A DNA stretch of 64,000 nucleotides, taken from positions 3,356 through 67,355 of the forward strand of contig DATEBA010000023.1 in assembly GCA_035288045.1 (NCBI GenBank), written 5' to 3'. The translations under genes and the position numbers were made by a program. Of the stretch, positions 9,560 through 61,927 are shown piece after piece. Each line of letters begins with the position of its first letter. Position 1 is the stretch's first letter. Under the pieces are notes generated by a model. That model was not told the DNA's origin. It saw only the letters and a program-made list of their open reading frames with translations, and ran no database searches. The DNA comes from Actinomycetota bacterium (GTDB lineage: Bacteria > Actinomycetota > UBA4738 > HRBIN12).

Positions 9560-9919
9560 GTGGAGGTGAGCCAGCCCGAGTTCGGCGACCCGACCAGGCG
9601 TACCTACCTTGCCGCAGAGCGCACGTTCCTGGCGTGGCTCCGCTCCGGGATGGCAGCCCTTGCGGTGGCCCTGGCCGTCGGCCGCCTGCTCCCGAGCCTG
9701 ACGGAGGGCTCCCCCACCCCCTTCCTCTTCCTGGGCATCGGCTTCGGCGTCCTGGGAGTCGCCATGGTGGTCTTCGGCTCGCTCCGGCAGCGGGAGGTCC
9801 AGCTCTCGGTAAAGAGCGGGAGCTTCCGGTTCCTCTCGCCGGGAGCTGTCCTCGGCTTCACGCTGCTCGGCACCATCCTGGGCGTCGCGACGGTGGTCCT
9901 CGTCGCGCTGGAACTCTGA
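9560..9919 (+). CDS. DUF202 (YidH-like) small membrane protein
   Basis: 119 aa. RTYLAAERTFLAWLRSGMAALAVA plus a second TM segment: the typical DUF202 pattern. Confidence 0.6.
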   Translation: MEVSQPEFGDPTRRTYLAAERTFLAWLRSGMAALAVALAVGRLLPSLTEGSPTPFLFLGIGFGVLGVAMVVFGSLRQREVQLSVKSGSFRFLSPGAVLGFTLLGTILGVATVVLVALEL

Positions 9920-9920
9920 C

Positions 9921-10739
9921 GTGGCAACCTTCGAGGGCTCCGAGGCGACGCTGCACTACGAGCAGTTCGGCGAGGGACCCGACATCGTGTGGGTCTCCGG
10001 TGGCGGCGGCCTGGGGAGCGATTGGCACCGCTACCAGATCCCGCATTTCGAACGGAGCTTTCGGAACACGACCTTCGACAACCGAGGGATCGGGAAGACG
10101 ACGTGCGACGCACCGCTTCCCTGGCCCGTCGAGGCGTTCGCGCGCGACACGGCGGAGCTGATCGAGGCGGTCTGCGACCCGCCGGTCGCGCTCGTCGGCC
10201 TCTCGATGGGGGCCCTGATCGCCCAGGAGGTCTGTCTGGACTTCCCCGACCTCGTCCGCTGCGCCGTCGTGACGGGCACGGGCGCGAACAGCGTCGGCTG
10301 GGGGTGGGACTACCAGCTGGCCGAGATCGACTTCAGGAAGGCGGGCGCCCGCCTCGATGGCATGATGGGCGTGACGCATTACGCAGCGATGCTGTATCCC
10401 GCGCGCGTGCTCGGCAACCCGGAGCTGTGGCCGAGGATCCGGGCGGAGCTCTTGGAGTGGATGGAGTCAGGCGAGAACGAGTCTTCGCTCATCCCCCAGT
10501 GGGACATGTGCCTGCGGTTCGACCAGACCGAGCGCCTGCCGCAGTGCCGGGTCCCGATGCACGTGATCGCCGGGGCCGAGGACGTGCAGGCGCCGCCACA
10601 GGACGCCAAGCTGGTGGCCGACCTGGTGCCCGGCGCCGAGTACCACCTCTTCGAGGGCATGGGGCACTGCTCGCTCTACGGTCACACGCACGATGTTCTG
10701 AACCCGTTCATCGAAGAGCTGATCCGCCGCTACCTTTGA
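9921..10739 (+). CDS. alpha/beta-fold hydrolase
   Basis: ORF 272 aa with GTG start. GLSMGA nucleophile elbow and C-terminal GHCSLYGH. Confidence 0.7.
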   Translation: MATFEGSEATLHYEQFGEGPDIVWVSGGGGLGSDWHRYQIPHFERSFRNTTFDNRGIGKTTCDAPLPWPVEAFARDTAELIEAVCDPPVALVGLSMGALIAQEVCLDFPDLVRCAVVTGTGANSVGWGWDYQLAEIDFRKAGARLDGMMGVTHYAAMLYPARVLGNPELWPRIRAELLEWMESGENESSLIPQWDMCLRFDQTERLPQCRVPMHVIAGAEDVQAPPQDAKLVADLVPGAEYHLFEGMGHCSLYGHTHDVLNPFIEELIRRYL

Positions 10740-10760: not shown

Positions 10761-12119
10761 TCACATGTGGGAGATGAGCTGTTCGACTCGTTCGTCGACC
10801 GACCTGAACGGGTCCTTGCAGAGCACGGTGCGCTGCGCCTGGTCGTTCAGCTTGAGGTGGACCCAGTCGACCGTGTAGTCGCGCCGCTTCTGCTTGGCCA
10901 TCTTGATGAAGTCCCCCCGGAGCTTCGCGCGCGTGGTCTGGGGCGGCTCGCGCATCGCGGCCGAGATCTGGGCCTCGGTGCAGACGCGCTCGCTCCTTCC
11001 CGCCCTCTCCATCAGGTAGTAGAGGCCGCGACTCCGGTTGACATCGTGGTACGCGAGATCGAGGAGCGCCACCTTGGGGCTCGAGAGCGGGATCGAGTGC
11101 TTCGTCCGATACCGCTCGATCATCGCTTGCTTGGTCACCCAGTCGACCTTGCCAACCAGCCGCTCCGGCCTCTCCTCTATCAGCGCGTCCAGCGCCTCCC
11201 GCCACTCCTCGAGCAGCTGTTTCGAGGTCGGATCGGTCCCATGATGCTCGAGGAACCGGGAGGTCTTGTCGAAATACTCCTCCTGGACGTCGATCGCTGT
11301 GAGCTCGCGTCCGTTCGCGAGCTTCACGCGCTTGCGGCAGGACACGTCGTGGGAGATCTCGCGGATCGCTCGGATTGGGTTCTCCAGGGTCAGATCGCGC
11401 ATCACCGTGTTCGCCTCGACCATCCGCAGGACGAGGTCGGTGATCCCGACCTTCATGAAGGCGGTCCACTCGTTCATGTTCGAGTCACCCACTATGACGT
11501 GGAGGCGGCGGAACCGTTCGGCGTCGGCGTGCGGTTCATCGCGGGTGTTGATGATCGGGCGCGACCGCGTCGTCGCGCTGGAAACACCCTCCCAGATGTG
11601 CTCGGCGCGCTGCGCTATGCAGTACTGTGCCCCGCGCGGCCCATGGAGCACCTTTCCCGCCCCGCAGTAGATCTGCCGAGTCACGAAGAACGGGATGAGG
11701 ACGTCGGCCATCCGAGCGAACTCGCCCTGGCGAGCCACGAGGTAGTTCTCGTGGCAGCCGTAGGAGTTCCCGGCCGAGTCGGTGTTGTTCTTGAACAGGT
11801 AGACCTGCCCGGAGATGCCCTCCTCGTGCAGGCGAACCTCCGCCGCCGAAAGGAGCGCCTCGAGGATCCGCTCCCCCGCCTTGTCGTGAGCTACCAGGTC
11901 GGCGATCGTGTCGCACTCCGGCGTCGCGTACTCGGGGTGAGAGCCGACGTCGAGGTACAGCCGGGCGCCGTTCTCGAGGAAGACGTTCGAGGAGCGGCCC
12001 CAGTGCACCACCCGGCGGAACAGGTACCGCGCGACCTCATCCGGGGAGAGCCGGCGCTGCCCGCGGAAGGTGCAGGTCACGCCGTACTCGTTCTCGAGAC
12101 CGAAGATGCGCCGGTCCAC
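10761..12119 (-). CDS. pafA: Pup--protein ligase PafA
   Basis: ORF 452 aa. [38 protein letters not shown] is near-identical in pattern to the mycobacterial PafA N-terminus. Carboxylate-amine ligase fold motifs are present. Confidence 0.9.
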
Positions 12120-12141
12120 GCAGGCCAGTCTAGGCCCGTGG

Positions 12142-12831
12142 CTACCCGTTGGAGAGGATGTTCGCTACCTCGGCGGCGTCGAGGCGGTGAAACTTGCGGC
12201 GGCCCTTCGCCGTGCGGTCGAGGATCCCAGCCTCGATCTGCGTAGCCTCGATCTGGCGGCTCTCGACCGTGGAGAGCGCCTTCACGGAGCTACCGACGGC
12301 CGTCGGCAGGTCCCATCCGGCCTCCCAGGCGCCCTTGAGCGCGTTGCCGAGATCCTCCGCCTTGCCTCCCATGGCGACGAAGTGGTCCTCGTCCGTGACG
12401 CTCCCGTCGAACAGGATGTGGTACATCGCGTTCCCCTCGGGCTCCTCGCCGATCTCGGCCACGAGGAGCTCCACCTCGTAGGGCTTCATCTGTTGCGTGA
12501 AGATCGTGGAGAGCGTCTGCGAGTACGCGTTCGCGAGGTCGCGCGCCTTCACGTCCTCGCGACCGTAGGAATAGCCGCGGAGGTCCGCGTGTCGCACGCC
12601 GGCGATCCGCAGATCCTCGAACTCGCTGTACTTGCCGACGCCGGCGAACGCGATCCGATCGTAGACCTCGGAGATCTTGTGAAGCGTGACGGAGGGGTTC
12701 TCCGCGACGAACAGGATCCCGTCGACGCACTCGACCGCAACGACCGACTTCCCTCGCGCTATGCCCTTGTGCGCGTAGTCGGAGCGGTCCTTCATGAGCT
12801 GCTCGGGCGGCACGTACGGCATGAAGGACAC
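12142..12831 (-). CDS. prcA: proteasome alpha subunit
   Basis: ORF 229 aa. [33 protein letters not shown]...[11 protein letters not shown] matches actinobacterial PrcA. Confidence 0.9.
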
Positions 12832-13631
12832 TAGGCCCGCCCCCCGAGGACGGCCTCGTAGGCCGTCTTCACCTCGTCCTCCGGCACCCCGCTCACGCCC
12901 TCGGAGGCGATCGCCAAGACCGTCGGGTAGATGCCGCGTGCCGCGTCTGGCCCGCCGGTCGCGACGTCCTCCTCGCTCGCGTCTACGAGCGCCTCGACGG
13001 CAACGCGGACCGCCTCGTCCGGCGCGAGGCCGGGACGCCAGCGCTTCTTGAGCGAGCTCTTCGCGGGCCGGCCACCCGAGCCGGTCGCGTGGTAGTCCTC
13101 CTCCTCCCAGCGACCGCCGGTGGCGTCGTAGTAGAAGAGGCGGCCTTCGGCCCGTCGCTCGTCGAACCCGCCGAAGAGCGGAACAACGACGAGTCCCTGC
13201 AGCGCCAGCGGGAAGTTCCCCCGGATCATCTGTGCGAGGCGATTCGCCTTTCCCTCCAAGGACAGGCGATCACCGGTGATCTTCTCGTAGTGCTCGAGCT
13301 CGAGCTGGAAGAGCTTGACGATCTCGACGGCCTGGCCGGCCGCCCCCGCTATCGCGATCGCCGAGTACTCGTCGGCCGCGAAGACCTTCTCGATCCGGTC
13401 GTCGGCTATCGAGTAGCCCTCGGTCGCGCGCCGGTCCCCAGCCATCACGACGCCGCCGCCGAACTTGAGCCCGAGCACGGTCGTGCCGTGGGCCGCCGGA
13501 ACCTCCCCCTCCGGCTGGCGCGGTACCGGCGCGGCCTCCGGCCGAACGGACATCACGAGATCGAAGAAGCTGGGGTTGGCACCGATCGGGCGGCCTGGGG
13601 GGAGGGGGGGCTCGGGGACGTCGCCCCTCAT
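12831..13631 (-). CDS. prcB: proteasome beta subunit (with propeptide)
   Basis: ORF 266 aa. Propeptide, then the HGTTVLGLKF active-site Thr1 context. GDRRATEG and GSGG motifs are present. Confidence 0.9.
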   Translation of the reverse strand: MRGDVPEPPLPPGRPIGANPSFFDLVMSVRPEAAPVPRQPEGEVPAAHGTTVLGLKFGGGVVMAGDRRATEGYSIADDRIEKVFAADEYSAIAIAGAAGQAVEIVKLFQLELEHYEKITGDRLSLEGKANRLAQMIRGNFPLALQGLVVVPLFGGFDERRAEGRLFYYDATGGRWEEEDYHATGSGGRPAKSSLKKRWRPGLAPDEAVRVAVEALVDASEEDVATGGPDAARGIYPTVLAIASEGVSGVPEDEVKTAYEAVLGGRA

Positions 13632-13834
13632 TCGCCGCCCTTCTGGACGTAGCTCTTCACGAACTCCTCGGCGTTCTCCTCGAGGACCGAATCGATCTCG
13701 TCGAGGATCTCGTCCATCTCCTCCTTCAGCTTCTCGCCCTTGGAGGTGGTCTGGACCTCGCCCGCGTCGCTCTCCGCGGCGCCTTCGCCGCCGCCCTTCT
13801 TCTGTGTCCGCTTCTGCTCCTGCTCCTGCGGCAT
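13628..13834 (-). CDS. pup: prokaryotic ubiquitin-like protein Pup (C-terminal GGE)
   Basis: Internal start M11 of ORF 13628..13864, with a GGAGG RBS 6 nt upstream. MPQEQEQKR...DEILDEIDSVLEENAEEFVKSYVQKGGE is the classic Pup pattern. Ends in GGE rather than GGQ. Confidence 0.85.
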   Translation of the reverse strand: MPQEQEQKRTQKKGGGEGAAESDAGEVQTTSKGEKLKEEMDEILDEIDSVLEENAEEFVKSYVQKGGE

Positions 13835-13908
13835 CTCGCTCCTCCCGCGGCCCCAGAGGCTCATTCTAGCGAGCCGTCCCCCTCACAGGGGACATCGGCT
13901 CGTCCGGC

Positions 13909-15393
13909 TCACTCCTGGAGCAGCCGGATCAGGTCCGCCGGGTCGCTCGCAGCCTCGAGGAGGCCCTCGACGTGTGCCCGCGTGCCCCGCAGGGGTTCCC
14001 GCATCGGCACACGCTGGAGTGCGTCCTCGCCCGTGTCGAATATGAGCGAATCCCAGGACGCCGCCGAGATCGCGTCGTGGAACTTCGCGATGCAGCGGCC
14101 GCGGAAGAACGCCCGCGTGTCCTCGGGCGGGCTCATCACGGCCGCCTCGACCTCGTCGTCCGTCACGAGCCGCTCCACCTTCCCAGCAGCCTCGAGACGG
14201 TAGTAGAGGCCCTTGTCACGCCGGACGTCGTGGTACTGGAGGTCGACGAGGCGGAGCTTGGGGTCGTTCCACTCGACGCCGTCGCGCTCCCGGTAGCCCT
14301 CCAGCAGCCGGTGCTTCGCGACCCAGTCGAGCTCGCGGTGGAGCGAGAGCGGGTCGTCCTCCAGCGCCGCGAGCGTCCGCTCCCATCGCTCGAGGACCAT
14401 CTGATTGTCCGGTGTGTCGTCCTGCTGCTCCACGTACTTCTTGGCGTGCTCGAGGTACTCCCACTGGACCTGGATCGCCGAAAGGCGTCGCCCGTCGGCG
14501 AGTGGCACCTCGACGGTACACGTAACGTCGCGCGAGATCTCGTGGAGCGCCGCGATCGCATTGGCGAGCGACAAGTCGGGCAGGAACTCGTCCTCGATCA
14601 TCTTGAGGACGAGCGCCGTCGAGCCGAGCTTCAGGTAGGTCGCGACCTCGCACATGTTGGCGTCGCCGATGATCACGTGGAGCCTCCGGTACTTGTCCGG
14701 ATCGGCGTGCGGCTCGTCGCGGGTGTTGACGATCGGTCGCTTGAGCGTGGTCTCCAGTCCGACCTCGGCCTCGAAGAAGTCCGCTCGCTGCGTGAGCTGG
14801 TAGAAGATCCGGCCGCGCTCGTCCCACGGCGCCTCCGCCCCGAGCTTCCCGGCGCCCGTGAACACCTGCCGCGACACGAGGAACGGCGTGAGATCGCGCA
14901 CTATCTGGCCGAACGGGGTCAGCCGGTCCATCAGGTAGTTCTCGTGCGTGCCGTACGAGTTCCCCTTGCCGTCGGAGTTATTCTTGTAGATCGCCAGGCG
15001 CTCCCCCGGTGGAAGGATCCGGTGGAGCTCGTCCAGCGAGCGCTCCAGCACGCGCTCCCCGGCCTTGTCGTGGATCACGAGCTCCCGCGCCGAGGAGCAC
15101 TCGGGCGTCGAGTACTCCGGGTGCGCGTGGTCGACGTAATAGCGCGCGCCGTTAGGGAGGATCACATTGGCGAGGCCGAGGTCCTCCTCGGATGGTTCGC
15201 GAACTTGTACCGGCTCGAAACCGCGGGCGTCCCGCAGCGGCGACTCCTGCTCGTAGTCCCAGCGGATCTTCCGCAGGGCGCCGGCGTACGTGCTGATGAG
15301 CAGCGAGGAGGAAAGCACCGGGTTGAACTCAGGCGACCCGACCGCCGCGATGCCGTACTCGGTCTCGGTGCCGATGACCTTCGGGATCCCCAT
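13909..15393 (-). CDS. dop: depupylase/deamidase Dop
   Basis: ORF 494 aa. VIGTETEYGIAA...YVDHAHPEYSTPEC...NTRDEPHAD...RRLHVIIGDANM is PafA-paralog architecture. Position between arc and pup is typical of Dop. Confidence 0.9.
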   Translation of the reverse strand: MGIPKVIGTETEYGIAAVGSPEFNPVLSSSLLISTYAGALRKIRWDYEQESPLRDARGFEPVQVREPSEEDLGLANVILPNGARYYVDHAHPEYSTPECSSARELVIHDKAGERVLERSLDELHRILPPGERLAIYKNNSDGKGNSYGTHENYLMDRLTPFGQIVRDLTPFLVSRQVFTGAGKLGAEAPWDERGRIFYQLTQRADFFEAEVGLETTLKRPIVNTRDEPHADPDKYRRLHVIIGDANMCEVATYLKLGSTALVLKMIEDEFLPDLSLANAIAALHEISRDVTCTVEVPLADGRRLSAIQVQWEYLEHAKKYVEQQDDTPDNQMVLERWERTLAALEDDPLSLHRELDWVAKHRLLEGYRERDGVEWNDPKLRLVDLQYHDVRRDKGLYYRLEAAGKVERLVTDDEVEAAVMSPPEDTRAFFRGRCIAKFHDAISAASWDSLIFDTGEDALQRVPMREPLRGTRAHVEGLLEAASDPADLIRLLQE

Positions 15394-15402
15394 GCCGGAA
15401 GG

Positions 15403-17151
15403 CTACAGGTACTGGCCGGCGTTGACGCGCTCGACCTGCCGCCCCTCCTCCCCGCCGTCGCCGAGGAGCGTCCGAACGTAGACGATTCGCTCGCCCTTCT
15501 TCCCGGAGATGCGGGCCCAGTCGTCCGGGTTCGTGGTGTTTGGCAGGTCCTCGTTCTCCTTGAACTCGCGGCGGATCGCCGTCAGGAGATCTTCTTGCTT
15601 GATGCCCTTCTCGCCGGTCGAGAGGAAGCGCTTTATCGCGTCCTTCTTGGCACGGCGGACGATGTTCTCGATCATCGCGCCGGAGTTGAAGTCCCTGAAG
15701 AACAGGATCTCCTTGTCGCCGGACGCGTACGTCACCTCGAGGAACCGATTCTCCTCGCTCTCCGCGTACATCTTTTCCACCGTGCGCTCGATCATCCTGC
15801 GGGTCGTGACGGCAACGTCGCCGCCTGCCCTGTCCACGTCATCCGGATGGATCGGCACCGATGGGTGCAGGTACTTCGACATGATGTCCGCGGCCTGGGG
15901 TCCGTCGGGTCGCTCGATCTTGATCTTCACGTCGAGACGGCCCGGCCGCAGGATCGCCGGGTCGATCAGGTCCTCGCGGTTGGAGGCGCCTATCACGATC
16001 ACGTTCTTCAGCGTCTCGACGCCGTCGAGCTCGGAGAGCAGCTGCGGGACGATCGTGCTCTCGACGTCGGACGAGATGCCGGTCCCGCGCGTGCGGAATA
16101 TCGAATCCATCTCGTCGAAAAAGACGATCACCGGGAGACCTTCCTCCGACCGCTCCTTCGCGCGCTGGAAGATCTGCCGGATCTGCCGCTCGGTCTCCCC
16201 GACGTACTTGTTGAGGAGCTCCGGGCCCTTGATGTTGAGGAAGTACGAGTGCGCGTCCTGCCGTCCGGTCCGCTCCTTCACCTTGTCCGCCAGCGATTTC
16301 GCGACGGCCTTCGCGATCAGCGTTTTGCCGCAACCAGGCGGGCCGTACAGGAGCACGCCCTTGGGCGGCTCGAGCTCGTGCTCGTGGAAGAGCTCCGCGT
16401 ACAGGAACGGCAGCTCGACGGCATCACGTATCTGCTCGATCTGACCCTCGAGGCCGCCGATGTCCTCGTAGGAGATGTCGGGAACCTCCTCCAGGACGAG
16501 CTCCTCCATCTCCTCCTTCGGGAGCTTCTCCAGCGCCACTCCCGAGCGCGGGTCGAGCAGGAGCGCGTCCCCGGCGCGAACGCTCTCATCACGCAGTTTC
16601 TTGGAGAGGATGGCTACAAGCTCCTCGTCGGCCCGGCCGAACACGATCACGCGATCGTCGCCTAGGCTCTCCTTCACCTTCACGACCTCGCCCTGGCGGT
16701 CGGGGTCCAGCGCCTCGACGACGTTCAGGGCCTCGTTCAAGACGACCTCCGTGCCCTTCGCGAGGCGCTCGACGTCGATCTCGGGCGCCACGTTCACGCG
16801 CATCTTCCGGCCGGAGGTGAAAACATCTACCGAGTCGTCATCGTTGCGACGGAGGAAGACGCCGAACGACGCCGGCGGCTTGCTCAGCTTCTCGACCTCG
16901 TCCTTGAGCGCCTCGATCTTGTCCCGCTCGGACCTGAGCGTCGCGACCAGCTTCTCGTTCTGCGACAGCGCGCGCGAGAGATCGGACTTGGTCTCGAGGA
17001 GCTTCTCCTCTAGGAGCTTCACCTGTCGAGGCGCGCTCGTGAGGCGTCGGCGAAGCAGCGCGACCTCGTCCTCGAGGAACTTGACCTGGGTCTGGAGCTC
17101 GTGGATCTGTTTCTCGTAAGCCTCACGCCGCTCGGGGTCGAGCTCCGGCAT
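15403..17151 (-). CDS. arc: proteasome-associated AAA ATPase ARC/Mpa
   Basis: ORF 582 aa. N-terminal coiled coil. GPPGCGKT Walker A, DEMD Walker B, C-terminal GQYL proteasome-docking motif. Confidence 0.9.
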
Positions 17152-17159
17152 CGTGCACC

Positions 17160-17225
17160 TCCACCGCGGGGAGCCCAGTATATGCCAGGCCCTCTCGCAT
17201 CCAAGAACGCGGTTCTTAGATAGAT
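17160..17225 (-). promoter_or_regulatory. candidate arc-operon promoter with perfect palindrome AAGAACCGCGTTCTT overlapping the -35 region
   Basis: Minus-strand reading: ...AAGAACCGCGTTCTTGGATgcgagagggcctggcaTATACTgggctccccgcggtGGAGGtgcacgATG. Possible -35 TTGGAT, 17 nt, -10 TATACT, and a GGAGG RBS 6 nt before the arc start. The 6+3+6 palindrome is at ~17203-17217. Confidence 0.35.
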
Positions 17226-17280
17226 ACGTCGGCTGCGCGGGGCTCCGGCTTGCGCCCCGAATACCGTTAGTCAGTTCGGG

Positions 17281-18063
17281 TCAGCTATCGCCCCGCCGAG
17301 CCACCGTCAGGAACCCCGTATGCCCTACCATGCGGTGGTCCGGGCGTACGCTCCGACCGGAGACGTGCCAGCTACGGTGGAGCGTCTCGAACGTTTCGAC
17401 GTGGCGGAAACCGTTTTCCTCGAGGGCGAGAACGAGGGCCTGGACCTGGACCGTGGTCGGCAGGTAAGTACACAGCACCCCTCCCGGCTCCAGGACTGCC
17501 GCGGCGACCTCTAGGAGCCTCCACGGCTCGGGAAGGTCGAGTACGAGCCGGTCGAAGCGCTCGCCGGTGCCGGCGATCTCGTTCACATCGCCCTCGCGGA
17601 GGTCGAGCCACGCCGGGAGCTTGCCATGGAACTGCTCGATGTTGGCGATCGCGCGCTCGCGGTGCTCCGGGCGGATCTCGTAGGAGACCACTCGGCCCTC
17701 CGGGCCCGTCGCCCGGCAGAGCGCGATCGTGAGCGAGCCGGACCCGGTCCCGGCTTCGAGCACCCGCGCTCCCGGGAAGACGTCGGCCTCCACGAGTATC
17801 GCGCCGAGGTCCTTCGGGTAGACGACCTGAGCCCCCCGGGGCATCTTCAGGACGAAGTCGGACAGACGAGGTCGGTAGGCGACGAGCGCCATCCCGCCGC
17901 TGGTCTCGACTGTCGTTCCCTCCCCCCGTCCGATGAGCGCGCCGTGCGCAAGCGCGCCCCCGTGGGTGTGGAACGTCCCGCCGGACTGGAGCCGTACGAG
18001 GTACGTCCGACCGCGCCCGTCCACGAGGAGCGCGCGTTCACCGGGCTCGAAGGGCGCGCTCAC
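17281..18063 (-). CDS. trmI: tRNA (adenine58-N1)-methyltransferase TrmI
   Basis: GTG start at 18063, internal to ORF 17281..18219, overlapping the upstream gene's stop as GTGA. SAM-dependent methyltransferase motifs (VLEAGTGSGSLT, DLPEPW) are typical of TrmI/Gcd14. Confidence 0.75.
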   Translation of the reverse strand: MSAPFEPGERALLVDGRGRTYLVRLQSGGTFHTHGGALAHGALIGRGEGTTVETSGGMALVAYRPRLSDFVLKMPRGAQVVYPKDLGAILVEADVFPGARVLEAGTGSGSLTIALCRATGPEGRVVSYEIRPEHRERAIANIEQFHGKLPAWLDLREGDVNEIAGTGERFDRLVLDLPEPWRLLEVAAAVLEPGGVLCTYLPTTVQVQALVLALEENGFRHVETFETLHRSWHVSGRSVRPDHRMVGHTGFLTVARRGDS

Positions 18064-19241
18064 GGCATCGCGCCCCCGTAGATCTCCGCCGGGAGGACCT
18101 CCTCCGACAGCTCGACGGCCACCTCGCGGTCGGCGGGAGGCGGGCCCAGCCGCTCGCCGAGGATCTGCGCGCGCGCGCGACAGAACGCGCAGAACCGTCC
18201 GGTCGTCGGCTGGCCGCACCGCTCACACTCGCGCAGCTCGGCCCTCTCCTCGCTCCGGAACAAGGGGGCTCCGCGATCCAGGTAGCCCAGGAAGAACTGC
18301 GCCTTCGTTCCCGGGGACCCCGCCTCGAGCCCGTTCATGGCCCCCTTGTAGCGCAGCTGCGTGTTGCCCGCCACGAGCGGGCACTCCTCCACGACGTAGT
18401 CGATCCGTCGCAGGAACGCGTAGGCGGCCGTCTCGAGCTCCGAGAGACGGTGGAGCGGCTTCACCTTCCTGACCATCCCCTCCGCGGCCGGCAGAACCGG
18501 GAACTGCCGCGCGATGTACTCGGTCTGCCAACGGAGGGTGTTGCCGAGCAATGTCGCGGCTTCGTCGTCCAGGTTGTGGCCCGTAGCGACCACGTCGAAG
18601 CCGTGCTCGAGCGCCGCGCGGTTGAACACGTACCGCTTGGAGAGCCCGCACACGGCGCACGTCGAGCGCGAGCCCCTCCGCCCCGCCGTCGGCACGTCGA
18701 ACCCGTAGGCCTGCGCCAGGTCGACCTCGAGCAGGGTCGCGCGCCGGTCCTCGGCGAACCGCCTCGCGACCTCGGCCGACCCGTGTGAGTACTGCCCGAT
18801 CCCGAGGCCGAGGTAAAGGCCGGTCACCCGGTAGCCGAGGTTGAGCAGCACGTCCCAGAGCCCGAGCGAGTCCTTGCCCCCCGACACGGCGACGAGAACG
18901 CGATCCTCCGGCCCGAACATGGCGTAGGCCTTGATCGCCCTCTTCACCTGCTCGCGGACGTGATGCAGGAAGCAGCCACGGCAGAAGGCCGCGTTGTGGC
19001 GGCGGATCTCGACCACCGCGGCACCGCCGCACCGCCTGCACTTGATCGCGCCGCCGGAGATCACCGGACGGATCTCGACGAGATCGCCCTCCGTCACGTG
19101 GTCCTCGCGCATCAGCAGCTCGCGGTCTCGGATCACCAGCACCGTGTCCGGATCGAGGTCGAGCTCGCGGAGGATGTCGCGGACCTTGCGATTGCCGGAG
19201 GTCTCCACCTCGCGGTCGGGGTTGCGCAGCTTGACCTTCAC
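18060..19241 (-). CDS. ttuA: tRNA 2-thiolation protein TtuA-like (PP-loop ATPase with N- and C-terminal zinc fingers) with an N-terminal ThiS/MoaD-like beta-grasp domain ending in GG
   Basis: ORF 393 aa. Residues 1-64 MKVKLRNPDREVETSGNRKVRDILRELDL...GDLVEIRPVISGG have the ThiS/MoaD sulfur-carrier signature and terminal Gly-Gly. They are followed directly by CRRCGG...FCRGC, the VLVAVSGGKDSLGLWDVL PP-loop, CAVCGLSKR, VVATGHNLDDEAA and the C-terminal RECERCGQPTTGRFCAFCR. The TtuA part closely parallels the sequence I recall for Thermus TtuA. Confidence 0.75.
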   Translation of the reverse strand: MKVKLRNPDREVETSGNRKVRDILRELDLDPDTVLVIRDRELLMREDHVTEGDLVEIRPVISGGAIKCRRCGGAAVVEIRRHNAAFCRGCFLHHVREQVKRAIKAYAMFGPEDRVLVAVSGGKDSLGLWDVLLNLGYRVTGLYLGLGIGQYSHGSAEVARRFAEDRRATLLEVDLAQAYGFDVPTAGRRGSRSTCAVCGLSKRYVFNRAALEHGFDVVATGHNLDDEAATLLGNTLRWQTEYIARQFPVLPAAEGMVRKVKPLHRLSELETAAYAFLRRIDYVVEECPLVAGNTQLRYKGAMNGLEAGSPGTKAQFFLGYLDRGAPLFRSEERAELRECERCGQPTTGRFCAFCRARAQILGERLGPPPADREVAVELSEEVLPAEIYGGAMP

Positions 19242-19278
19242 TAGGTCACAGGCTAGCGCACGCGACGGTACGGGGTCG

Positions 19279-20382
19279 CTAGCGGGTCGGGTCCGGGTTC
19301 ACTCCGAGGGTCACGCCGACGGTCTTCTCACCGTTCAGACCGTCGACTCGAACCTCGACCTCCTCCCCGGGAGACCGGCTGCGGATCAGGTCCCCGAGCT
19401 CCTCCGACGACGCCACATCGTGCCCGTCGAAGCCCAGGACGACATCGCCTTGCTCGATCCCAGCTTCGGCTGCCGGGCCGTCCGGCGCCACGGCCACGAC
19501 GAAGGCACCCTCGCTCACCGGCAGCCCGTACTGGATCGCGAGAGGCGAGTCCACGGTTCGCGAGATGACCCCCAGGTAGGCGACCGCCGCCTCGGGGTTC
19601 TCGATGGCGTGCTCGATCGTGGGCTTGGCGGCGTCGATCGAGATCGCGAAACCGATGTTCTCCGCGAACCCGGCACCGATGCCTGCGGTGTTGATGCCGA
19701 CGACCTGCCCCGCCAGGTTCACGAGGGGCCCGCCGGAGTTCCCCGGGTTTATCGCGGCGTCGGTCTGGATCACGTGGGAGTACTCGCGCTGGCCCCCGAG
19801 GCAGACGTCCTGGGCACAGTTCGGGTCCTGAGCCTTGATCACCCTGTCCATCGACGAGACGATGCCGGTCGTCACGCTGGGGCCACCCTCAAGAGCTAGC
19901 GCGTACCCGATCGCAACGACCTGCTGCCCGAGCTCGAGGGCGTCCGAGCTGCCGAGCGACACGGTGGGCAGACCCGCGTCGTCGATCTTCAACACCGCCA
20001 GATCGGCCGCCTGATCCCCGCCGATCACCCGGGCGTCGTACTCCTCGGGTTCCTGTCCGGAGGTGATGACTCGGATCCGCTGGGCGCGCTCCACGACGTG
20101 GTAGTTCGTCACCACGACCCCGTCGGGGCGGACTATGAATCCGGTGCCGGTCCCTTGACCCGTGTCCCCGAAGGGGTCGAGCTGGTCGGTCGTCACGTTG
20201 ACGACCGCCGGGAGCACGCGCCTGACCACCTGCACCACCGGCCCGCCGCGCACCTTCGAGATGAGGGCGGGAGAAGCCTGCTCCGGACTCGCTTCGGCCC
20301 GCACCTGCGACGGCGGCTCGGTCGTGCACGCCGCGACCAGCAGCCCTAGCGCGAGCGCCGGAGCCAGGATCTTGCCGGTCAT
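19279..20382 (-). CDS. HtrA/DegP-family serine protease with PDZ domain, lipoprotein signal
   Basis: ORF 367 aa. Signal plus lipobox LVAAC. Trypsin-like fold with GNSGGPL active-site Ser. C-terminal PDZ. Confidence 0.85.
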   Translation of the reverse strand: MTGKILAPALALGLLVAACTTEPPSQVRAEASPEQASPALISKVRGGPVVQVVRRVLPAVVNVTTDQLDPFGDTGQGTGTGFIVRPDGVVVTNYHVVERAQRIRVITSGQEPEEYDARVIGGDQAADLAVLKIDDAGLPTVSLGSSDALELGQQVVAIGYALALEGGPSVTTGIVSSMDRVIKAQDPNCAQDVCLGGQREYSHVIQTDAAINPGNSGGPLVNLAGQVVGINTAGIGAGFAENIGFAISIDAAKPTIEHAIENPEAAVAYLGVISRTVDSPLAIQYGLPVSEGAFVVAVAPDGPAAEAGIEQGDVVLGFDGHDVASSEELGDLIRSRSPGEEVEVRVDGLNGEKTVGVTLGVNPDPTR

Positions 20383-20460
20383 GTCCCTCCCACGATACGG
20401 GTCCCTACCACGATACGGGCTCGCCCCGTATTCGACGTGCGCGGACCGGCCGTTCGCCGC

Positions 20461-21630
20461 TCAGGCGGAGAGCGCCGCGGCGGGGACCTTCTTGCTCGGG
20501 TCCACGAAGGGAAGCGCGGCAGTCTTTCCCGCGGTCCGCTCCCCTCCCCGCCAGAGGATCTCGACCTCGATCCCCGGATCGGCGAGCTCGATCGGAACCC
20601 AGACGTACCCGATGTTCTTCTCCAGGCGAGGCGACCAGATCAGGTCCGTCACGTAGCCGACCTCCCGGCCGTCGTGGAGCGCGGGCCGGACCTCCGAGAT
20701 CTCGAAGTCGAGCGCCTCGCCCGGAACCTCGATTCCGACGAGCTTCTTCGTCACGCCCTCGTTGCGGATCCTCGCGAGGGCGGCCTTGCCGATGTAGTCG
20801 GCTTGCTGCTCCTCGACGAGTCGTTCGAGGCCCATCACCTCGAACGGGTTGTTGCGGATGGTCATGTCCGAGCCGTAGTTGAAGATGCCCGCTTCGATCC
20901 GGCGGGCCTCAACCGGCGCGATCGGGCGGATCTGGTAGGGCTCCCCCGCCTGCATGATCCTGTCCCACATCTCGCTCCCACGCGTCGGGTCCATCAGGTA
21001 GATCTCGAACCCGACCTCGCCAGTCCAGCCCGTCCGGCTGACCACGACCGGGATGTCGTCGAGCCGCGTCTGCATCGTCCAGTAGTACTTGATCTCAAGG
21101 ACCCCGTCACCGAACAGGTCGCGCAGCACGTCCTTGGACTTCGGCCCCTGCACCTGCACCGGGTAGACGTCCGGCTCGTCGACGCGGACGTCCAGCCCCG
21201 AGTTGACCGCGACGCCACGCGCGTAGAGGCCGGCGTCGCTGTCGGCCAGAGCCAGCCAGTACCGGTTCTCCTCCAGGCGGAGAAGAACGGGGTCGTTCAC
21301 GATCCCGCCGTCCTCCGCCATGATCAACGCGTACTTGCCCTGGCCGACCGCGCACTTGTCGAGGTCCCGGCAGGTCAGCATGTTCGTGAACCGGTGGGCG
21401 TCGGAACCTGTGATCTCGACGATCCGCTCGACCGAGACGTCCCAGAGCGTCACTTGCTCGAGGAGGTGCCAGTACTCCTTCACCGGGTCGTCGTAGTAGC
21501 CCGGCAGGTACATGTGGTTGTAGATGTCGTATGCCTTGCACCCGGCCTCGAGCGTCTTCTCAAAGAACGGCGACTTCCTGTACCAGGGGCCGAAATAGAG
21601 CGTGGTCGACGTGTTGCCGAACTCGGTCAT
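20461..21630 (-). CDS. GcvT-family (aminomethyltransferase-like) THF-dependent methyltransferase/demethylase, paralog 1
   Basis: ORF 389 aa with GcvT N- and C-domain patterns. Paralogous to 23115..24269 (LWDVSVER..., VVVSRTGWTGEVG..., PFVDP). Confidence 0.7.
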   Translation of the reverse strand: MTEFGNTSTTLYFGPWYRKSPFFEKTLEAGCKAYDIYNHMYLPGYYDDPVKEYWHLLEQVTLWDVSVERIVEITGSDAHRFTNMLTCRDLDKCAVGQGKYALIMAEDGGIVNDPVLLRLEENRYWLALADSDAGLYARGVAVNSGLDVRVDEPDVYPVQVQGPKSKDVLRDLFGDGVLEIKYYWTMQTRLDDIPVVVSRTGWTGEVGFEIYLMDPTRGSEMWDRIMQAGEPYQIRPIAPVEARRIEAGIFNYGSDMTIRNNPFEVMGLERLVEEQQADYIGKAALARIRNEGVTKKLVGIEVPGEALDFEISEVRPALHDGREVGYVTDLIWSPRLEKNIGYVWVPIELADPGIEVEILWRGGERTAGKTAALPFVDPSKKVPAAALSA

Positions 21631-21712
21631 GCTGGTGCCCTCCCTGTCCGAACCCCGGGCTCTCCACCCGCGCTGATTGAATCTTCAGTCAAGCCGGCCC
21701 TCCCGTGCAAGT

Positions 21713-22669
21713 TCAGGCGGAAGTGGGCACGGCCACCTCGGGGCGCGGGAGGAGGCCCGCTTCCTCGATGAGCGCCAGGATGTCTTCGCGACCTCCGATG
21801 GACATGAGGTGGACCCCCGAGACCCCGGGTAGCTCCCTGGCCCCGTGGAGGACCTCGAGGGCGATCCTCCTACCCTCCTCCGCCTGGCGTTCGGCCGGCG
21901 TTCCCTCCATGCGCTCGATCACCCAGTCCGGGACATCGATACCGGGTACCTGATCGCGGAGGTACCGTGCTCCCCTTAGGGAACGGGGGATGAAGATGCC
22001 GACGAGCACGAACACTCGGTCGAGCGCTCCGAGCTCGCCGGCGCGAGCCATGAACTCGCGGAGCTTGGACACGTTGAAGCAGATCTGGGTCTGGATGAAC
22101 TGGGCGCCCGCCTCCACCTTCTTCTGGAGACGGATCGGGCGGAAATCGAGCGGAGGCGCGAACGGGTTCTCGACCGCGCCGATGAAGAATCGCGGAGACT
22201 CCGTGAGCCGGCGCCCGGATAGGTAGGTCCCGTCGTCGCGCAAGATCCGAGCGATCCGAATCAGGTGGAGCGAATCGAGGTCGTAGATCGCCTTTGCCTC
22301 TGGGTGGTCGCCGGCGGACACGTCGTCGCCGGTCATGAGCATCACGTTCCGCACCCCGAGCGCGGCCGTGCCGAGCAAGTCCGCCTGAAGTCCGAGGCGG
22401 TTCCGGTCGCGGCAGGTGAACTGCGCGATCGGCTCGATGCCGCGATCGACGAGCAGGTGCGCGGCCGCGACCTGCGAGATGTGGGGGTGAGCGGCGCTGT
22501 TGTCGGTGCAGTTCACGGCGTCGACCTTGCCCCGCAAGGGATCCGCGACGGCGTGGACCGACTCGGGATCAGCGCCGTCGGTCGTCTCGAGCTCGCAGGT
22601 GACGGCGAAGTGCCCGCCCCTGAGCAGCGCTTCCAGTCGACTCGCCGGTGGGCGTCCGGTCTGGCTCAT
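21713..22669 (-). CDS. metF: 5,10-methylenetetrahydrofolate reductase (MetF family)
   Basis: Internal start M140 of ORF 21713..23086, in an ATGA overlap with the upstream gene. HFAVTCELETTDGAD...FTCRDRN...LLGTAALGVRNVMLMTGD is the MTHFR TIM-barrel pattern. Confidence 0.75.
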   Translation of the reverse strand: MSQTGRPPASRLEALLRGGHFAVTCELETTDGADPESVHAVADPLRGKVDAVNCTDNSAAHPHISQVAAAHLLVDRGIEPIAQFTCRDRNRLGLQADLLGTAALGVRNVMLMTGDDVSAGDHPEAKAIYDLDSLHLIRIARILRDDGTYLSGRRLTESPRFFIGAVENPFAPPLDFRPIRLQKKVEAGAQFIQTQICFNVSKLREFMARAGELGALDRVFVLVGIFIPRSLRGARYLRDQVPGIDVPDWVIERMEGTPAERQAEEGRRIALEVLHGARELPGVSGVHLMSIGGREDILALIEEAGLLPRPEVAVPTSA

Positions 22670-23046
22670 TCGCGCTTCACTTGCTCGTCGGCCCATCCTG
22701 CCGGCACCAGCTTGTCCCGCCGGGTGAGTAGGTTCACCCAGGACGAGGTGCCCTCCAGCTGCCAATCCACCGGCGGGTTCAGGTGCTCCATATGGTCCCG
22801 CCAGAGCGGAAGCTTCCGAGAGCGCTCCCAGGCAACCACCCAGGTGCACATGCGGTCGGGTTCCACCTCGCAGTTGCCGTTCTGCAAGACGCCGCCGCAG
22901 GGACCGTTGCGGAGGTTCTTCGGGCAGGTCATTGGGCATCGGAGCCCCGTGGAGTGCAGGATGCACTGGCCGCACATCCGGCAGTCCCAGAGCGGCTCCT
23001 TCGTGACCTTCTCCACGAGGAGGATCGCTCGCGTGCCGAGCCCCAT
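22666..23046 (-). CDS. MTHFR C-terminal-domain (MetV-like) Cys-rich zinc-ribbon protein
   Basis: Internal start M138 of ORF 22666..23457. CRMCGQCILHSTGLRCPMTCPKNLRNGPCGG...NCEVEPDRMCTW gives a multi-Cys pattern, as in the stand-alone MTHFR_C partner of MetF. Confidence 0.6.
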   Translation of the reverse strand: MGLGTRAILLVEKVTKEPLWDCRMCGQCILHSTGLRCPMTCPKNLRNGPCGGVLQNGNCEVEPDRMCTWVVAWERSRKLPLWRDHMEHLNPPVDWQLEGTSSWVNLLTRRDKLVPAGWADEQVKRE

Positions 23047-23114
23047 CTTCGGGCGCCCCCTCGCATTGGCCGTCTCCACCTGCCACCTCCCGTGGGGATC
23101 TCCCCGCCCCTCGA

Positions 23115-24269
23115 CTAGGAGACGGGGATCTGCTTGTTCGGGTCGACGAACGGCATCTCGACCACGGTCGCAGTCCGCGTGCCCCACTCGCTCTCCACGA
23201 TCACCCTCGTGCCGAGCTCGGACCGAGCCGTCGGCAGCCAGGCGAAGCCGATGTTCTTCTCCAGACGCGGCGAGTAGATCGCGGAGGTCACCTTTCCGAT
23301 CTTCGCCCCATCCTCGACCACCGGCCACTTCACGTAGTTGAGCGCGGGGAACGGGGCGCCGTCGAGCTCGACCCCGTTGATCCTGCGGGTCACGCCCCGC
23401 TCCTTGATCCGTCGGAGCGCCTTGAGGGAGATGCTCGCGTCGTCCGGCACGTCCCAATCGACCAGGCGCTCCAACCCCATCTCGAGCGGATCGTTCTCGT
23501 AGGTCATGTCTGCGCCCCAGTTGAAGATCGCGCCCTCGATCCGCCTGATGTCCGAGGGGCCGGTCGGTTTGATGTTGAACTCCTCGCCGGCCTTCATGAT
23601 GGCCTCGTAGACCTCCGCGCCCCGAGACGCATCGATCGTGTAGACCTCGTAGCCAACCTCGGAGGTCCAGCCCGTCCGCGTCACGACCACCGGCACGCCT
23701 GCGATCTCCGCGTGCGTCCAGAAGTAGTACTTGAGGTCCAGGATGCTCTCGCCGAGGAGCTTCACCATCAGGTCCTTGGACTTCGGGCCCTGGACCTGGA
23801 GCGGCGCCACGTCGGCCTCGCGGATCGTGACATCGAGATCTGGGTATGCGTTCTTCAACCCGCGCGCGAACAGAAGGGCGTCGGACGACGCCAGTGCGAA
23901 CCAGAACGTGTTCTCGTCCATCCTAGTGAGGACGGGGTCGTTGATGATCCCGCCGTCGCTGTCGACGATGAGGACGTACTTGGCCTGGCCCACTGCGCAC
24001 TTCGACAGGTCCCGCGGGGTGAGGAGCTGGGCGAACGTGAAACCGTCGGGGCCGCCGATCTCCAGGCACCGCTCGACCGCGACGTCCCAGAGCGTCACGT
24101 CGTTCAGCAGAGCCTCGAACTCCGCCTCGAATGAGTCGAAGCGGATCGGGAAGTACATGTGGTTGTAGACCGTGAACCCCTTCGGCCCGTACTTCTGCGT
24201 GGCCTCGTGGTACGGCGTGCGGCGGCCCCGCGCCCCACGCTGCACCAGGCTCATGTCGAACTCGGGCAT
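23115..24269 (-). CDS. GcvT-family THF-dependent methyltransferase/demethylase, paralog 2
   Basis: ORF 384 aa. Same domain pattern as 20461..21630. Confidence 0.7.
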   Translation of the reverse strand: MPEFDMSLVQRGARGRRTPYHEATQKYGPKGFTVYNHMYFPIRFDSFEAEFEALLNDVTLWDVAVERCLEIGGPDGFTFAQLLTPRDLSKCAVGQAKYVLIVDSDGGIINDPVLTRMDENTFWFALASSDALLFARGLKNAYPDLDVTIREADVAPLQVQGPKSKDLMVKLLGESILDLKYYFWTHAEIAGVPVVVTRTGWTSEVGYEVYTIDASRGAEVYEAIMKAGEEFNIKPTGPSDIRRIEGAIFNWGADMTYENDPLEMGLERLVDWDVPDDASISLKALRRIKERGVTRRINGVELDGAPFPALNYVKWPVVEDGAKIGKVTSAIYSPRLEKNIGFAWLPTARSELGTRVIVESEWGTRTATVVEMPFVDPNKQIPVS

Positions 24270-24401
24270 GCCCTCCTCCTCGATGTCTCGGGCTACGGAG
24301 AGACCGAGGGCGCCTGCGGCCCTGCCTCCGCGCCCTTCCGGGTCGTCGGCGTATCGTGCGAGCCCCGCCCCCCCGCAGCAACACCGCGCGTTGACCCCTG
24401 G

Positions 24402-25355
24402 TCAGGAGGCCGCCCCGCCGGAGTCGTTGGCCTGCGGCGGAGGGAAGATGCGCCCCTCCAGGTAGCCGCGGCCGACGATGGCCATGAACAGGTGAACCTC
24501 GTCCTCGTTCCAGGCGAAGGGCCCTTGCCGGGCGCCACGCGAGGCTAGCCCTCGCTGGACCGACTCGCACGCGGCCCAGTCCTCCCTGTTCGTCACGTCC
24601 CAGAACTCGCTCGCGTAGGAGGGGTCGAAGTCCGCGAGCTCCGTAACCTCCGGCGGAAAGAGCCAGGAGCACTCCACCCACGTCTTTCCCGGGGTGAGCG
24701 GATCCATGCGGTGCGTCATCACGTAGTCCGGGTGCAGGCTGATCAGCAGGTTAGGGAACAGCCCGTAGTAGTAGACCTCGCGGCGTTGCTTCTCGTCCAG
24801 GCCGCGGATCGGCACGCCCCCGCCCCTGCCGGTGAACGACATGGTCTCGGCGAAGTCCATGAGCTCCATGTTCCCACCGACCCAGCATCCGTTGTGGGGG
24901 AAGTTCTCACCACTGTCCACCGGCGTCACCTTGCACAGGGCCGGATGGATGCTCGGGCAGTGGTAGCACTCGTGGTAGTTCTCCGTAATCGTCTTCCAGT
25001 TAGCGTTCACGACGTATTCGTGCTTCGCCGCTACGAAGAGACGCTCGGGCTCCCACGGCGCGACGAGCTCATCGAGGTTCCCCACGTGCTCCTCGAAGGG
25101 GAGCGCATAGCCGGAGGCATCGGCGAACGCCCACCCGTGCCACTCGCGAACGACCCCGGGGCCCGAGAGTTCCTCCGCCCGACCGAGGCACACCCAGGAC
25201 CCCTCGAAGAAGTGGGAGCGTTCCCAGGCGAGAACCTCCTCTGACAGGTAGGCCTCCGGTGGCAGGGTCCGGCTCGCGCCCAGAGTGGACCTGAGCGCGG
25301 TCCGAATGGCCTGCGCGTCGACGGGTGCGATGGGTTCGACGGCTGCCCGGCTCAT
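24402..25355 (-). CDS. ring-hydroxylating oxygenase alpha-subunit homolog lacking the Rieske [2Fe-2S] domain
   Basis: ORF 317 aa. N-terminal LAWERSHFFEGSWVCLGRAEEL and the catalytic-domain motif NWKTITENYHECYHCPSIHP (mononuclear Fe His pair) are present. Only a relic (REWHGWAF) of the second Rieske box is present, and no CxH box. Confidence 0.55.
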   Translation of the reverse strand: MSRAAVEPIAPVDAQAIRTALRSTLGASRTLPPEAYLSEEVLAWERSHFFEGSWVCLGRAEELSGPGVVREWHGWAFADASGYALPFEEHVGNLDELVAPWEPERLFVAAKHEYVVNANWKTITENYHECYHCPSIHPALCKVTPVDSGENFPHNGCWVGGNMELMDFAETMSFTGRGGGVPIRGLDEKQRREVYYYGLFPNLLISLHPDYVMTHRMDPLTPGKTWVECSWLFPPEVTELADFDPSYASEFWDVTNREDWAACESVQRGLASRGARQGPFAWNEDEVHLFMAIVGRGYLEGRIFPPPQANDSGGAAS

Positions 25356-39804: not shown

Positions 39805-39809
39805 GCGCC

Positions 39810-53745: not shown

Positions 53746-55761
<2,016 letters not shown>

Positions 55762-55795
55762 GGACCGATTGTATGGCCCAACCGCGACACGGGAT
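55762..55795 (-). promoter_or_regulatory. candidate leaderless promoter of uvrB with RecA-NDp-like (PafBC-type) upstream motif
   Basis: Minus strand: TGTCG-cggttgggcca(11 nt)-TACAAT-cggtcc-GTG(uvrB start). The -10 hexamer is 6 nt upstream of the start codon, and the TGTCG element sits at the spacing reported for the mycobacterial RecA-independent DNA-damage promoter. Confidence 0.4.
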
Positions 55796-55811
55796 CGGCG
55801 ATCGGTGAGCT

Positions 55812-61921: not shown

Positions 61922-61927
61922 GGACGC

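Follow-up and report, generated by a model that had tools for sequence, protein, structure and literature searches.

In Thermus, the tRNA T-loop modification 5-methyl-2-thiouridine at position 54 (m5s2U54, also written s2T54) is made by a system of the proteins TtuA, TtuB and TtuC, together with TtuD and IscS. In the sulfur carrier TtuB, the Gly at the C-terminus is adenylated by an E1-like enzyme and turned into a thiocarboxylate, whose sulfur is passed on at the cluster of TtuA (PMC7025502, PMC7912444), and m1A58 is a positive determinant for the 2-thiolation of position 54 (PMC6313347, PMC7912444). The modification has been reviewed as confined to thermophiles and absent from mesophiles (PMC6313347). 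Here we describe a locus in a 64,000-nucleotide stretch of an Actinomycetota genome (assembly GCA_035288045.1, contig DATEBA010000023.1, positions 3,356 to 67,355; the whole stretch is called the window below), in which a gene encoding both a TtuB-like carrier and a TtuA-like enzyme overlaps trmI, the gene for the tRNA (adenine58-N1)-methyltransferase. The first-pass annotation, an earlier reading of this stretch, had proposed a coupled ttuA-trmI pair at this place, and its statement that m1A58 promotes thiolation of position 54 agrees with the literature on Thermus.

In the synthesis of thioquinolobactin in Pseudomonas (QbsE/QbsD), the carrier is made with residues beyond its GG, which a JAMM protease removes before activation, and a JAMM protease with its carrier is reportedly also the subject of a paper on chuangxinmycin synthesis. 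In QbsE/QbsD and in the natural-product carriers of actinomycetes the JAMM gene adjoins that of the carrier, whereas none lies near the gene described here. The eukaryotic ubiquitin-ribosomal protein precursors resemble our locus in that an N-terminal ubiquitin-fold fusion is cut after GG, with stoichiometric co-production of the two parts, but this is an analogy only and there is no sign of protein conjugation at ttuBA. A carrier joined to its own enzyme is known from MoaX of Mycobacterium tuberculosis (MoaD-MoaE), the activity of which needs a cut between Gly82 and Ser83 by a protease that was unidentified in 2015 (PMC4326299). Cleavage of a MoaD-MoaE fusion by the Deinococcus protease DRJAMM, and of linear SAMP1 fusions by HvJAMM1, has been described (PMC8832034). 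As in the MoaX-type fusions of Mycobacterium and Deinococcus, the ubiquitin-fold carrier at our locus is N-terminal to its partner enzyme, with a conserved GG at the junction. MoaX is actinobacterial too, and its small P1' residue (Ser83) corresponds to Ala, Ser or Gly in the TtuB-TtuA clade. It differs in serving molybdopterin synthesis rather than tRNA thiolation and in the fold of the partner; moreover, cleavage is known for MoaX, whereas it is predicted for TtuB-TtuA.

The ttuB-ttuA gene and its overlap with trmI

The features of the gene pair, with positions counted from the first nucleotide of the window, are as follows.

18060-19241, minus strand: fused ttuB-ttuA gene (PP-loop gene), 393 residues, GTG start at 19241, codon of Pro393 at 18063-18065, TGA stop at 18060-18062
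19050-19241, minus strand: TtuB/ThiS-like ubiquitin-fold sulfur-carrier domain, residues 1-64, ending in RPVISGG, with Gly63-Gly64 at 19050-19055
19044-19049, minus strand: linker Ala65-Ile66, with the proposed cleavage site between Gly64 (19050) and Ala65 (19049); the codons across the junction are GGC GGC GCG ATC AAG TGC
18060-19043, minus strand: predicted TtuA-type [4Fe-4S] PP-loop tRNA 2-sulfurtransferase domain, residues 67-393 and stop, assigned from PDB, NCBIfam and Foldseek matches and from invariant residues
18972-19040, minus strand: N-terminal zinc finger, C68/C71/C87/C90 (Pfam TtuA_LIM_N, E=3.8e-9)
18867-18884, minus strand: PP-loop SGGKDS, residues 120-125 (Pfam ATP_bind_3)
18657-18659, 18648-18650 and 18381-18383, minus strand: [4Fe-4S] ligands C195, C198 and C287, aligned to C130/C133/C222 of Thermus thermophilus TtuA
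18180-18227, minus strand: C-terminal zinc finger, C339/C342/C351/C354 (CxxC…CxxC)
18060-18063, minus strand: GTGA overlap of 4 nt, in which the trmI GTG (18063-18061) lies over the ttuBA TGA (18062-18060), from the sequence and independent gene calls
17281-18063, minus strand: trmI, tRNA (adenine58-N1)-methyltransferase, 260 residues, GTG start at 18063-18061, from Pfam GCD14, TrmI-like_N and PDB matches

The upstream gene is a ttuB-ttuA fusion and not a plain ttuA. Pfam recognises three domains in its product (ThiS at residues 9-64, TtuA_LIM_N at 67-92 and the PP-loop domain at 115-286), the ThiS match scoring 24.6 bits against a gathering cutoff of 22.5. The best PDB match of the carrier domain is T. 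thermophilus TtuB (5ztb_E, E=3.7e-13), to which it aligns end to end through the C-terminal GG with about 50% identity, and SAMP2 (E=4.5e-9) likewise aligns over its full length to the final …ISGG. In an AlphaFold2 (AF2) model of the fused protein, which is of moderate quality with a mean predicted local distance difference test (pLDDT) score of 66, the carrier part has the beta-grasp order of strands and helix and gives template modelling (TM) scores of 0.83-0.90 to TtuB chains (normalised to the target). The pLDDT drops below 50 at residues 61-64, as expected of a flexible tail. The Thermus carrier and this domain are of equal length and have the …ISGG tail in common; the crystallised Thermus chain is a separate protein that ends at GG, whereas the carriers of the source clade are fused or tailed. 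At our locus the junction reads …EIRPVISGG-AI-KCRRCGG…, with two residues from the GG to the first zinc finger, and the GG is present and invariant, yet internal (residues 63-64 of 393) instead of forming a free C-terminus. The first-pass annotation had advised looking for ttuB in the genome. It is indeed present, as residues 1-64 of the very gene that had been called ttuA, and it was the fusion that had been missed.

The remainder of the protein is that of a TtuA. T. thermophilus TtuA (5b4e) matches residues 67-356 (E=6e-92; 52% ungapped identity over 290 residues), and the PP-loop, the Fe-S cysteines and the zinc fingers are the same in both. Its cysteines C130, C133 and C222, the cluster ligands whose roles in Thermus were taken from PMC7025502, align without gaps with C195, C198 and C287. 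All cysteines listed above are invariant in an alignment of 50 homologues, as are S120-D124 of the PP-loop; S125 is kept in 90% or more of the sequences. The PDB bit scores are 311 for T. thermophilus TtuA, 241 for Pyrococcus horikoshii TtuA, 85 for NcsA and 37 for TilS, and the corresponding NCBIfam scores are 262.5 for TtuA, 111 for NcsA, 69 for TtcA and 17 for MnmA. In a Foldseek search with the AF2 model, ranks 1-15 were all TtuA. These three comparisons uphold the earlier call of a TtuA-like PP-loop protein, and the clustering with TtcA or MnmA that had been named as the contrary outcome was not seen. The TtuA part also carries a conserved C-terminal tail (residues ~378-389, 18063-18105, minus strand; consensus LSxEVMPAEIYG) just before the trmI overlap and past the end of the alignment with the Thermus TtuA structure. 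E381 and P384 are invariant in this tail, and V382, E386 and Y388 are conserved in at least 90% of the sequences.

The product of trmI contains both the catalytic and the N-terminal domain of the family (Pfam GCD14, E=3.5e-32; TrmI-like_N, E=7.4e-16). Its best solved relative is M. tuberculosis Rv2118c (233 bits, E=3.3e-68, residues 3-257), and T. thermophilus TrmI scores 179 bits (E=7.9e-52); this full-length likeness to solved TrmI proteins bears out the first-pass assignment. The longest open reading frame (ORF) available to trmI starts at 18219 (312 residues), and its 52 added residues are without homology, while residues 5-260 of M. tuberculosis TrmI (1i9g) align to residues 3-257 of the 260-residue product. 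A G-rich, Shine-Dalgarno-like run (GGGGG) finishes 9 nt ahead of the GTG. Independent gene calls in four other assemblies give the same genes of 393 and 260 residues with the same 4-nt overlap. A scan of 15300-20600 for promoters and terminators on the coding strand gave nothing useful.

Fused and split relatives

To compare related loci, one genome per species was scanned; 412 genomes contained a relative, and the locus comparisons were made with the best 80 of these 412, all of which are metagenome-assembled genomes (MAGs) of uncultured Actinomycetota. The spacing of ttuA and trmI was read in the 75 loci with both genes placed. A 4-nt [A/G]TGA overlap was found in 62 of the 75, an overlap of any length in 65, and a gap of at most 30 nt in 74. 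Because the same 4-nt overlap recurs so widely, it is a conserved feature and not a chance one; the GTGA shared by start and stop, which the first-pass annotation had pointed out, is thus one instance of a tight coupling kept in the related loci. We know of no translational coupling of ttuA to trmI in Thermus. Given that 2-thiolation at position 54 is favoured by m1A58 in Thermus, the conserved overlap makes functional sense, and the functional tie to TrmI and m1A58 is a further likeness to the Thermus system. In one related locus (L025, 10001-12223) an open frame of 740 residues spans ttuB and ttuA and runs into trmI, which reflects a triple fusion or else a frameshift in the assembly, and in another (L032, 10001-11212) a local frame error abolishes the RPVISGG motif.

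The two domains are joined in about half of the relatives: of 79 loci that were classified, 41 are fused and 38 are split. In the split loci a separate ttuB of 65-74 residues lies in another frame, with its TGA overlapping the ttuA start (ATGA or GTGA). At the protein level, all of the 120 best clusters (72-99% identity, 386-422 residues) are fused and have the order RPV[I]SGG, linker, zinc finger; the 393-residue sequence of the source locus recurs unchanged in other ENA assemblies, and a protein 99% identical to it is present in one from JGI. Not one of the 38 separate ttuB genes stops at GG. They continue for 1-10 further residues, typically two (GGAR-stop, GGSA-stop, GGAP-stop), although a GGA-TGA overlap would have permitted a stop at GG. 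The RPVISGG motif is invariant in the alignment of 50 homologues and, in a separate check, in 77 ungapped loci. In the 120 fused clusters the linker that follows it is hypervariable and 2-17 residues long, and its first residue is small (Ala, Ser or Gly). The median ratio of nonsynonymous to synonymous substitution rates (dN/dS) of the TtuB domain is 0.26 in fused and 0.30 in split loci, which indicates purifying selection of similar strength on the domain in both arrangements. Judged by sequence conservation, the GG tail is functional and not decaying, because RPVISGG is invariant beside a hypervariable linker and the dN/dS is low.

The junctions themselves carry traces of their origin. A Met from the old ttuA start persists as a relic in ~86% of the fused clusters (as counted from the list of linkers), and split relatives read GGx GGx xxx xxA TGA AGT GC at the corresponding place. 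By this comparison, the Ala65-Ile66 linker is probably a relic of an ancestral overlap between a ttuB stop and a ttuA start, in which the ATG has become ATC; having lost its ATG, this codon can no longer serve as a start of its own for TtuA. Fused and split states are interleaved on a neighbour-joining (NJ) tree of the TtuA part (built without bootstrap support), and the junctions are of two types, GG-xx-NRMKC (from a V-NRMKC start) and GG-A-[M/I]-KC (from an ATGA overlap), the source locus being of the second type. The interleaving and the differing junctions suggest that the fused and split forms have been interconverted repeatedly via small indels at the ATGA/GTGA overlap. In the wider TtuA family, viewed through its 150 best representatives (clusters at 50% identity), nearly all proteins begin at the zinc finger without a fused carrier, and fused forms occur only in the source clade and in a more divergent set (42-51% identity). 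Several of these representatives are frameshifted chimeras. A TrmI-like sequence follows ttuA in at least two of the divergent fused sequences and in one unfused representative.

Proposed processing of the carrier and competing explanations

We interpret the locus as a T-loop modification operon, ttuB-ttuA-trmI, in which the carrier is made as a precursor and cleaved after Gly64, as M. tuberculosis MoaX is, and we put the probability of this interpretation at roughly 60%. Because the GG is internal to the fused protein, a free C-terminal GG would arise only after proteolysis, and cleavage would be needed because a carboxylate locked in a peptide bond cannot be adenylated or thiocarboxylated. 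The conserved tail, the ordinary constraint on the domain and the universal post-GG extension together argue that TtuB in this clade is always a precursor. Fusion would then be harmless, since the split forms would need post-GG trimming too, and the fused protein would be an extreme precursor with TtuA itself as the 'tail'.

In the proposed mechanism, TrmI would make m1A58, and a peptidase, most likely a JAMM/MPN+ metalloprotease with its gene elsewhere, would cut after Gly64, freeing TtuB-GG and a TtuA that begins two residues ahead of the first zinc finger. An E1-like enzyme of the TtuC/MoeZ type would adenylate TtuB and a persulfide source would thiocarboxylate it, whereupon TtuB-COSH would dock on TtuA and give up its sulfur. 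The TtuA part would adenylate C2 of U54 (or of m5U54) and swap its oxygen for sulfur. The 4-nt overlaps, between ttuB and ttuA in the split relatives and between ttuA and trmI in almost all, would couple translation in such a way that carrier, thiolase and TrmI are co-produced. Of this picture, the domain identities, the fusion, the extension beyond GG in all carriers, the purifying selection and the conserved coupling are observed, while we infer that cleavage takes place and that a peptidase, an E1 and a sulfur source act on the carrier, as well as which nucleoside is the target and whether it becomes s2U54 or m5s2U54. To our knowledge, mycobacterial tRNA is without ribothymidine, and if the same holds for the source clade, the product may by analogy be s2U54 rather than m5s2U54. 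In Sulfolobus acidocaldarius s2U54 has been reported, with TtuA and TtuB present and TrmA absent (PMC7912444). The sole tRNA in the window, a tRNA-Leu(GAG), shows an ordinary T-loop, GGTTCAAATCC, in which U54, C56 and A58 are present.

Several points weigh against this interpretation. Pfam scans of the window, which took in about 46 ORFs, found no JAMM/MPN+ protease, ThiF/MoeB-type E1, rhodanese or cysteine desulfurase, and neither ttuC, in which the window differs from the Thermus system, nor iscS nor a post-GG peptidase was found within its 64 kb. In the 80 loci, a regular-expression search, which is less sensitive than a profile, found no JAMM (HxH…S..D) or E1 (DxDxVxxSNLxRQ) motif within 10 kb of the gene; over window and loci together it gave chance hits inside Dop only. 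The AF2 model, at its mean pLDDT, is uninformative on docking. The TtuA score of 262.5 bits lies under the NCBIfam equivalog cutoff of 450 bits, which belongs to a Pyrococcus-type TtuA model (NF049949), no Thermus-type model being among the results, and we infer position 54 as the target from homology only. Lastly, work published in PNAS in 2017 is said to have found that some TtuA enzymes can work in vitro with inorganic sulfide in place of TtuB, in which case the carrier would not be an absolute requirement.

The fusion might never be cleaved, its TtuB-like domain serving as a non-carrier module (a stabilising, regulatory or tRNA-contacting beta-grasp) while TtuA takes sulfur from sulfide or persulfide on its [4Fe-4S] cluster. 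Such a module would fit the reported sulfide-dependent activity, the failure of the scans to find peptidase or E1 genes in the window and around the gene in the 80 loci, and the near-general absence of a fused carrier from other TtuA family representatives. We nevertheless consider this explanation unlikely, because RPVISGG stays invariant beside a hypervariable linker, which is not what one would expect of a domain that had acquired another role, and because the domain's dN/dS is about equal to that of the separate ttuB genes of sister lineages, which encode an ordinary TtuB save for the short tail. With a linker of two residues, it also seems implausible for the tail to extend in cis as far as the active site.

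More improbable still is that position 54 is not the target and that the enzyme thiolates, for example, U34 (like archaeal NcsA and eukaryotic Ncs6) or C32 (like TtcA), its link with TrmI being only positional. Specificity is not readable from sequence, the TtuA score is under the equivalog cutoff, and in Mycobacterium we take trmI to lie close upstream of the proteasome ATPase gene with no ttuB or ttuA upstream of it, so that the position of trmI may be inherited. Against this stand the much closer similarity of the protein to the characterised U54 thiolases (PDB scores of 311 and 241 versus 85 for NcsA; NCBIfam scores of 262 versus 111 and 69), the best match of the carrier domain, which is TtuB itself, and the 4-nt overlap with trmI in 62 of 75 loci, which argues for co-expression. 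We give next to no credence to the idea that two neighbouring genes have only been joined by an erroneous indel in a G-rich run, introduced in sequencing or assembly. It is true that the junction is G/C-rich, that many of the MAGs labelled MFD are, going by their labels, from long reads prone to homopolymer indels, and that there are evident frame errors in L032 and L025 and frameshifted chimeras among the 50%-cluster representatives. The identical 393-residue protein, however, is found in separate ENA assemblies with k141-style names, which we read as short-read assemblies, next to the JGI protein with 99% identity to it; every one of the 120 top clusters has the fusion, fused forms turn up in k141-named SMAG assemblies as well, and the linkers have accumulated substitutions and in-frame indels, for which evolutionary time is needed.

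Neighbourhood, habitat and implications

The other annotated features of the window are listed below.

19279-20382, minus strand: HtrA-like trypsin/PDZ serine protease (Pfam Trypsin_2, PDZ_2) with a lipoprotein-type signal (…LLVAAC…)
15403-17151, minus strand: arc/mpa proteasome ATPase (NCBIfam pup_AAA, 786 bits)
13909-15393, minus strand: dop (NCBIfam Dop, 647 bits)
13628-13864, minus strand: pup (Pfam Pup)
10761-13631: prcB, prcA and pafA (pafA at 10761-12119; Pfam Proteasome, Pup_ligase)
8452-9543, 9560-9919 and 9921-10739, opposite strand: DUF3866, DUF202 and alpha/beta hydrolase genes between the paf regulators and pafA
6492-8412: pafC- and pafB-like WYL regulators, the rest of the Pup-proteasome neighbourhood
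38542-40188: archaeal-type cofactor-independent phosphoglycerate mutase-like gene
40578-42781: gap-pgk
43769-45697: uvrC
47383-50274: uvrA
53746-55932: uvrB
61304-63337: ribosomal protein S1

The gene order htrA-like, ttuB/A, trmI, arc, dop, pup, prcB, prcA, pafA is kept in nearly all of the 80 loci, and part of the trmI/proteasome arrangement has probably been inherited. The HtrA-like gene lies 37 nt upstream of ttuBA, a position kept in most of the 80 loci. Its product was rejected as the TtuB-processing enzyme, since its lipoprotein signal sequence presumably places it outside the cytoplasm; as an exported protease it would be an unlikely processor of TtuB. Dop was likewise set aside, as its chemistry is different and proximity is all that recommends it. 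A scan for small ORFs ending near GG found Pup only. Pup ends in …QKGGE and not in GGQ, so that no deamidation by Dop would be needed before ligation and Dop would act as a depupylase only.

Further upstream, 20461-25355 (minus strand) holds two GcvT-like aminomethyltransferases, a protein like methylenetetrahydrofolate reductase (MTHFR) and the alpha subunit of a Rieske-type ring-hydroxylating oxygenase. This cluster looks like a tetrahydrofolate-dependent demethylation module, and a GcvT-like gene is found upstream in most related loci too. The genes at 38542-63337, coaE included, are housekeeping genes, none of them tied to sulfur transfer. Long antisense 'shadow' ORFs (13972-16665 on the plus strand, 897 residues opposite dop and arc; 17626-18081 on the plus strand; and others) are not genes; such ORFs are typical of DNA with 68% GC, and they were recognised by high first-position and lower third-position GC.

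The first-pass annotation had gone on to suggest that the organism is a thermophile, and this suggestion found no support: the labels of the relatives point mostly to soil, and the estimate from composition is biased. We take most labels of the 80 loci to denote soil or Danish environmental surveys (those beginning SMAG_ or MFD, and those with pasture or ContSoil), one to denote a hot-spring MAG (KatS3mg013) and one a heated soil (Centralia), so that the hot-spring thermophile Thermus contrasts with Actinomycetota that come mostly from apparent soils. The fraction of residues I, V, Y, W, R, E and L (IVYWREL) over 41 window proteins is 0.439, which would translate into a growth temperature of 76 °C (median of the related loci, 68 °C). 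We rejected this estimate because the conserved cytosolic set is biased high, with TrmI of the mesophile M. tuberculosis reaching 0.426. For TtuA and TrmI of the window the values are 0.424 and 0.448, both less 'thermophilic' by this measure than the Thermus orthologues (0.493 and 0.482, respectively). Since the IVYWREL estimate is unreliable, the growth temperature is not readable from the window, and the single tRNA, with 63% GC, is uninformative in this respect.

Searches of the literature available to us found no description of a TtuB-TtuA fusion or of TtuA in Actinobacteria. The fusion is a variant of known systems, which combines the chemistry of Thermus TtuABC with the fusion and cleavage logic of MoaX. 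The genes concerned are now annotated as 'ATP-binding protein', 'TIGR00269 family' or 'MoaD/ThiS family protein', and the annotation should read ttuB-ttuA fusion. The universal post-GG extension and the fusion imply a peptidase for a bacterial ubiquitin-like protein, which would be the second actinobacterial case besides MoaX, and comparative genomics of the fused versus the split lineages could help to find the processing protease. Given the fixed place of the operon beside arc-dop-pup-prcBA, released TtuB might in addition modify proteins, in communication with the Pup-proteasome system.

A broader proposal, which we put forward tentatively and regard as rather unlikely, is that a large and mostly soil-derived clade of Actinomycetota obligatorily makes TtuB as a ubiquitin-style precursor, with a short tail or with the whole enzyme attached, that is cleaved after GG and also installs s2T/s2U54 and m1A58 at ordinary temperatures. 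Were s2T/s2U54 indeed formed at ordinary temperatures, this would overturn the thermophile-specific view of the modification. If the system is active, T-loop thiolation would be ecologically much wider than thought, with its core machinery of carrier, thiolase and TrmI in one operon, and if the clade is mesophilic, thiolation of position 54 would be common in soil bacteria.

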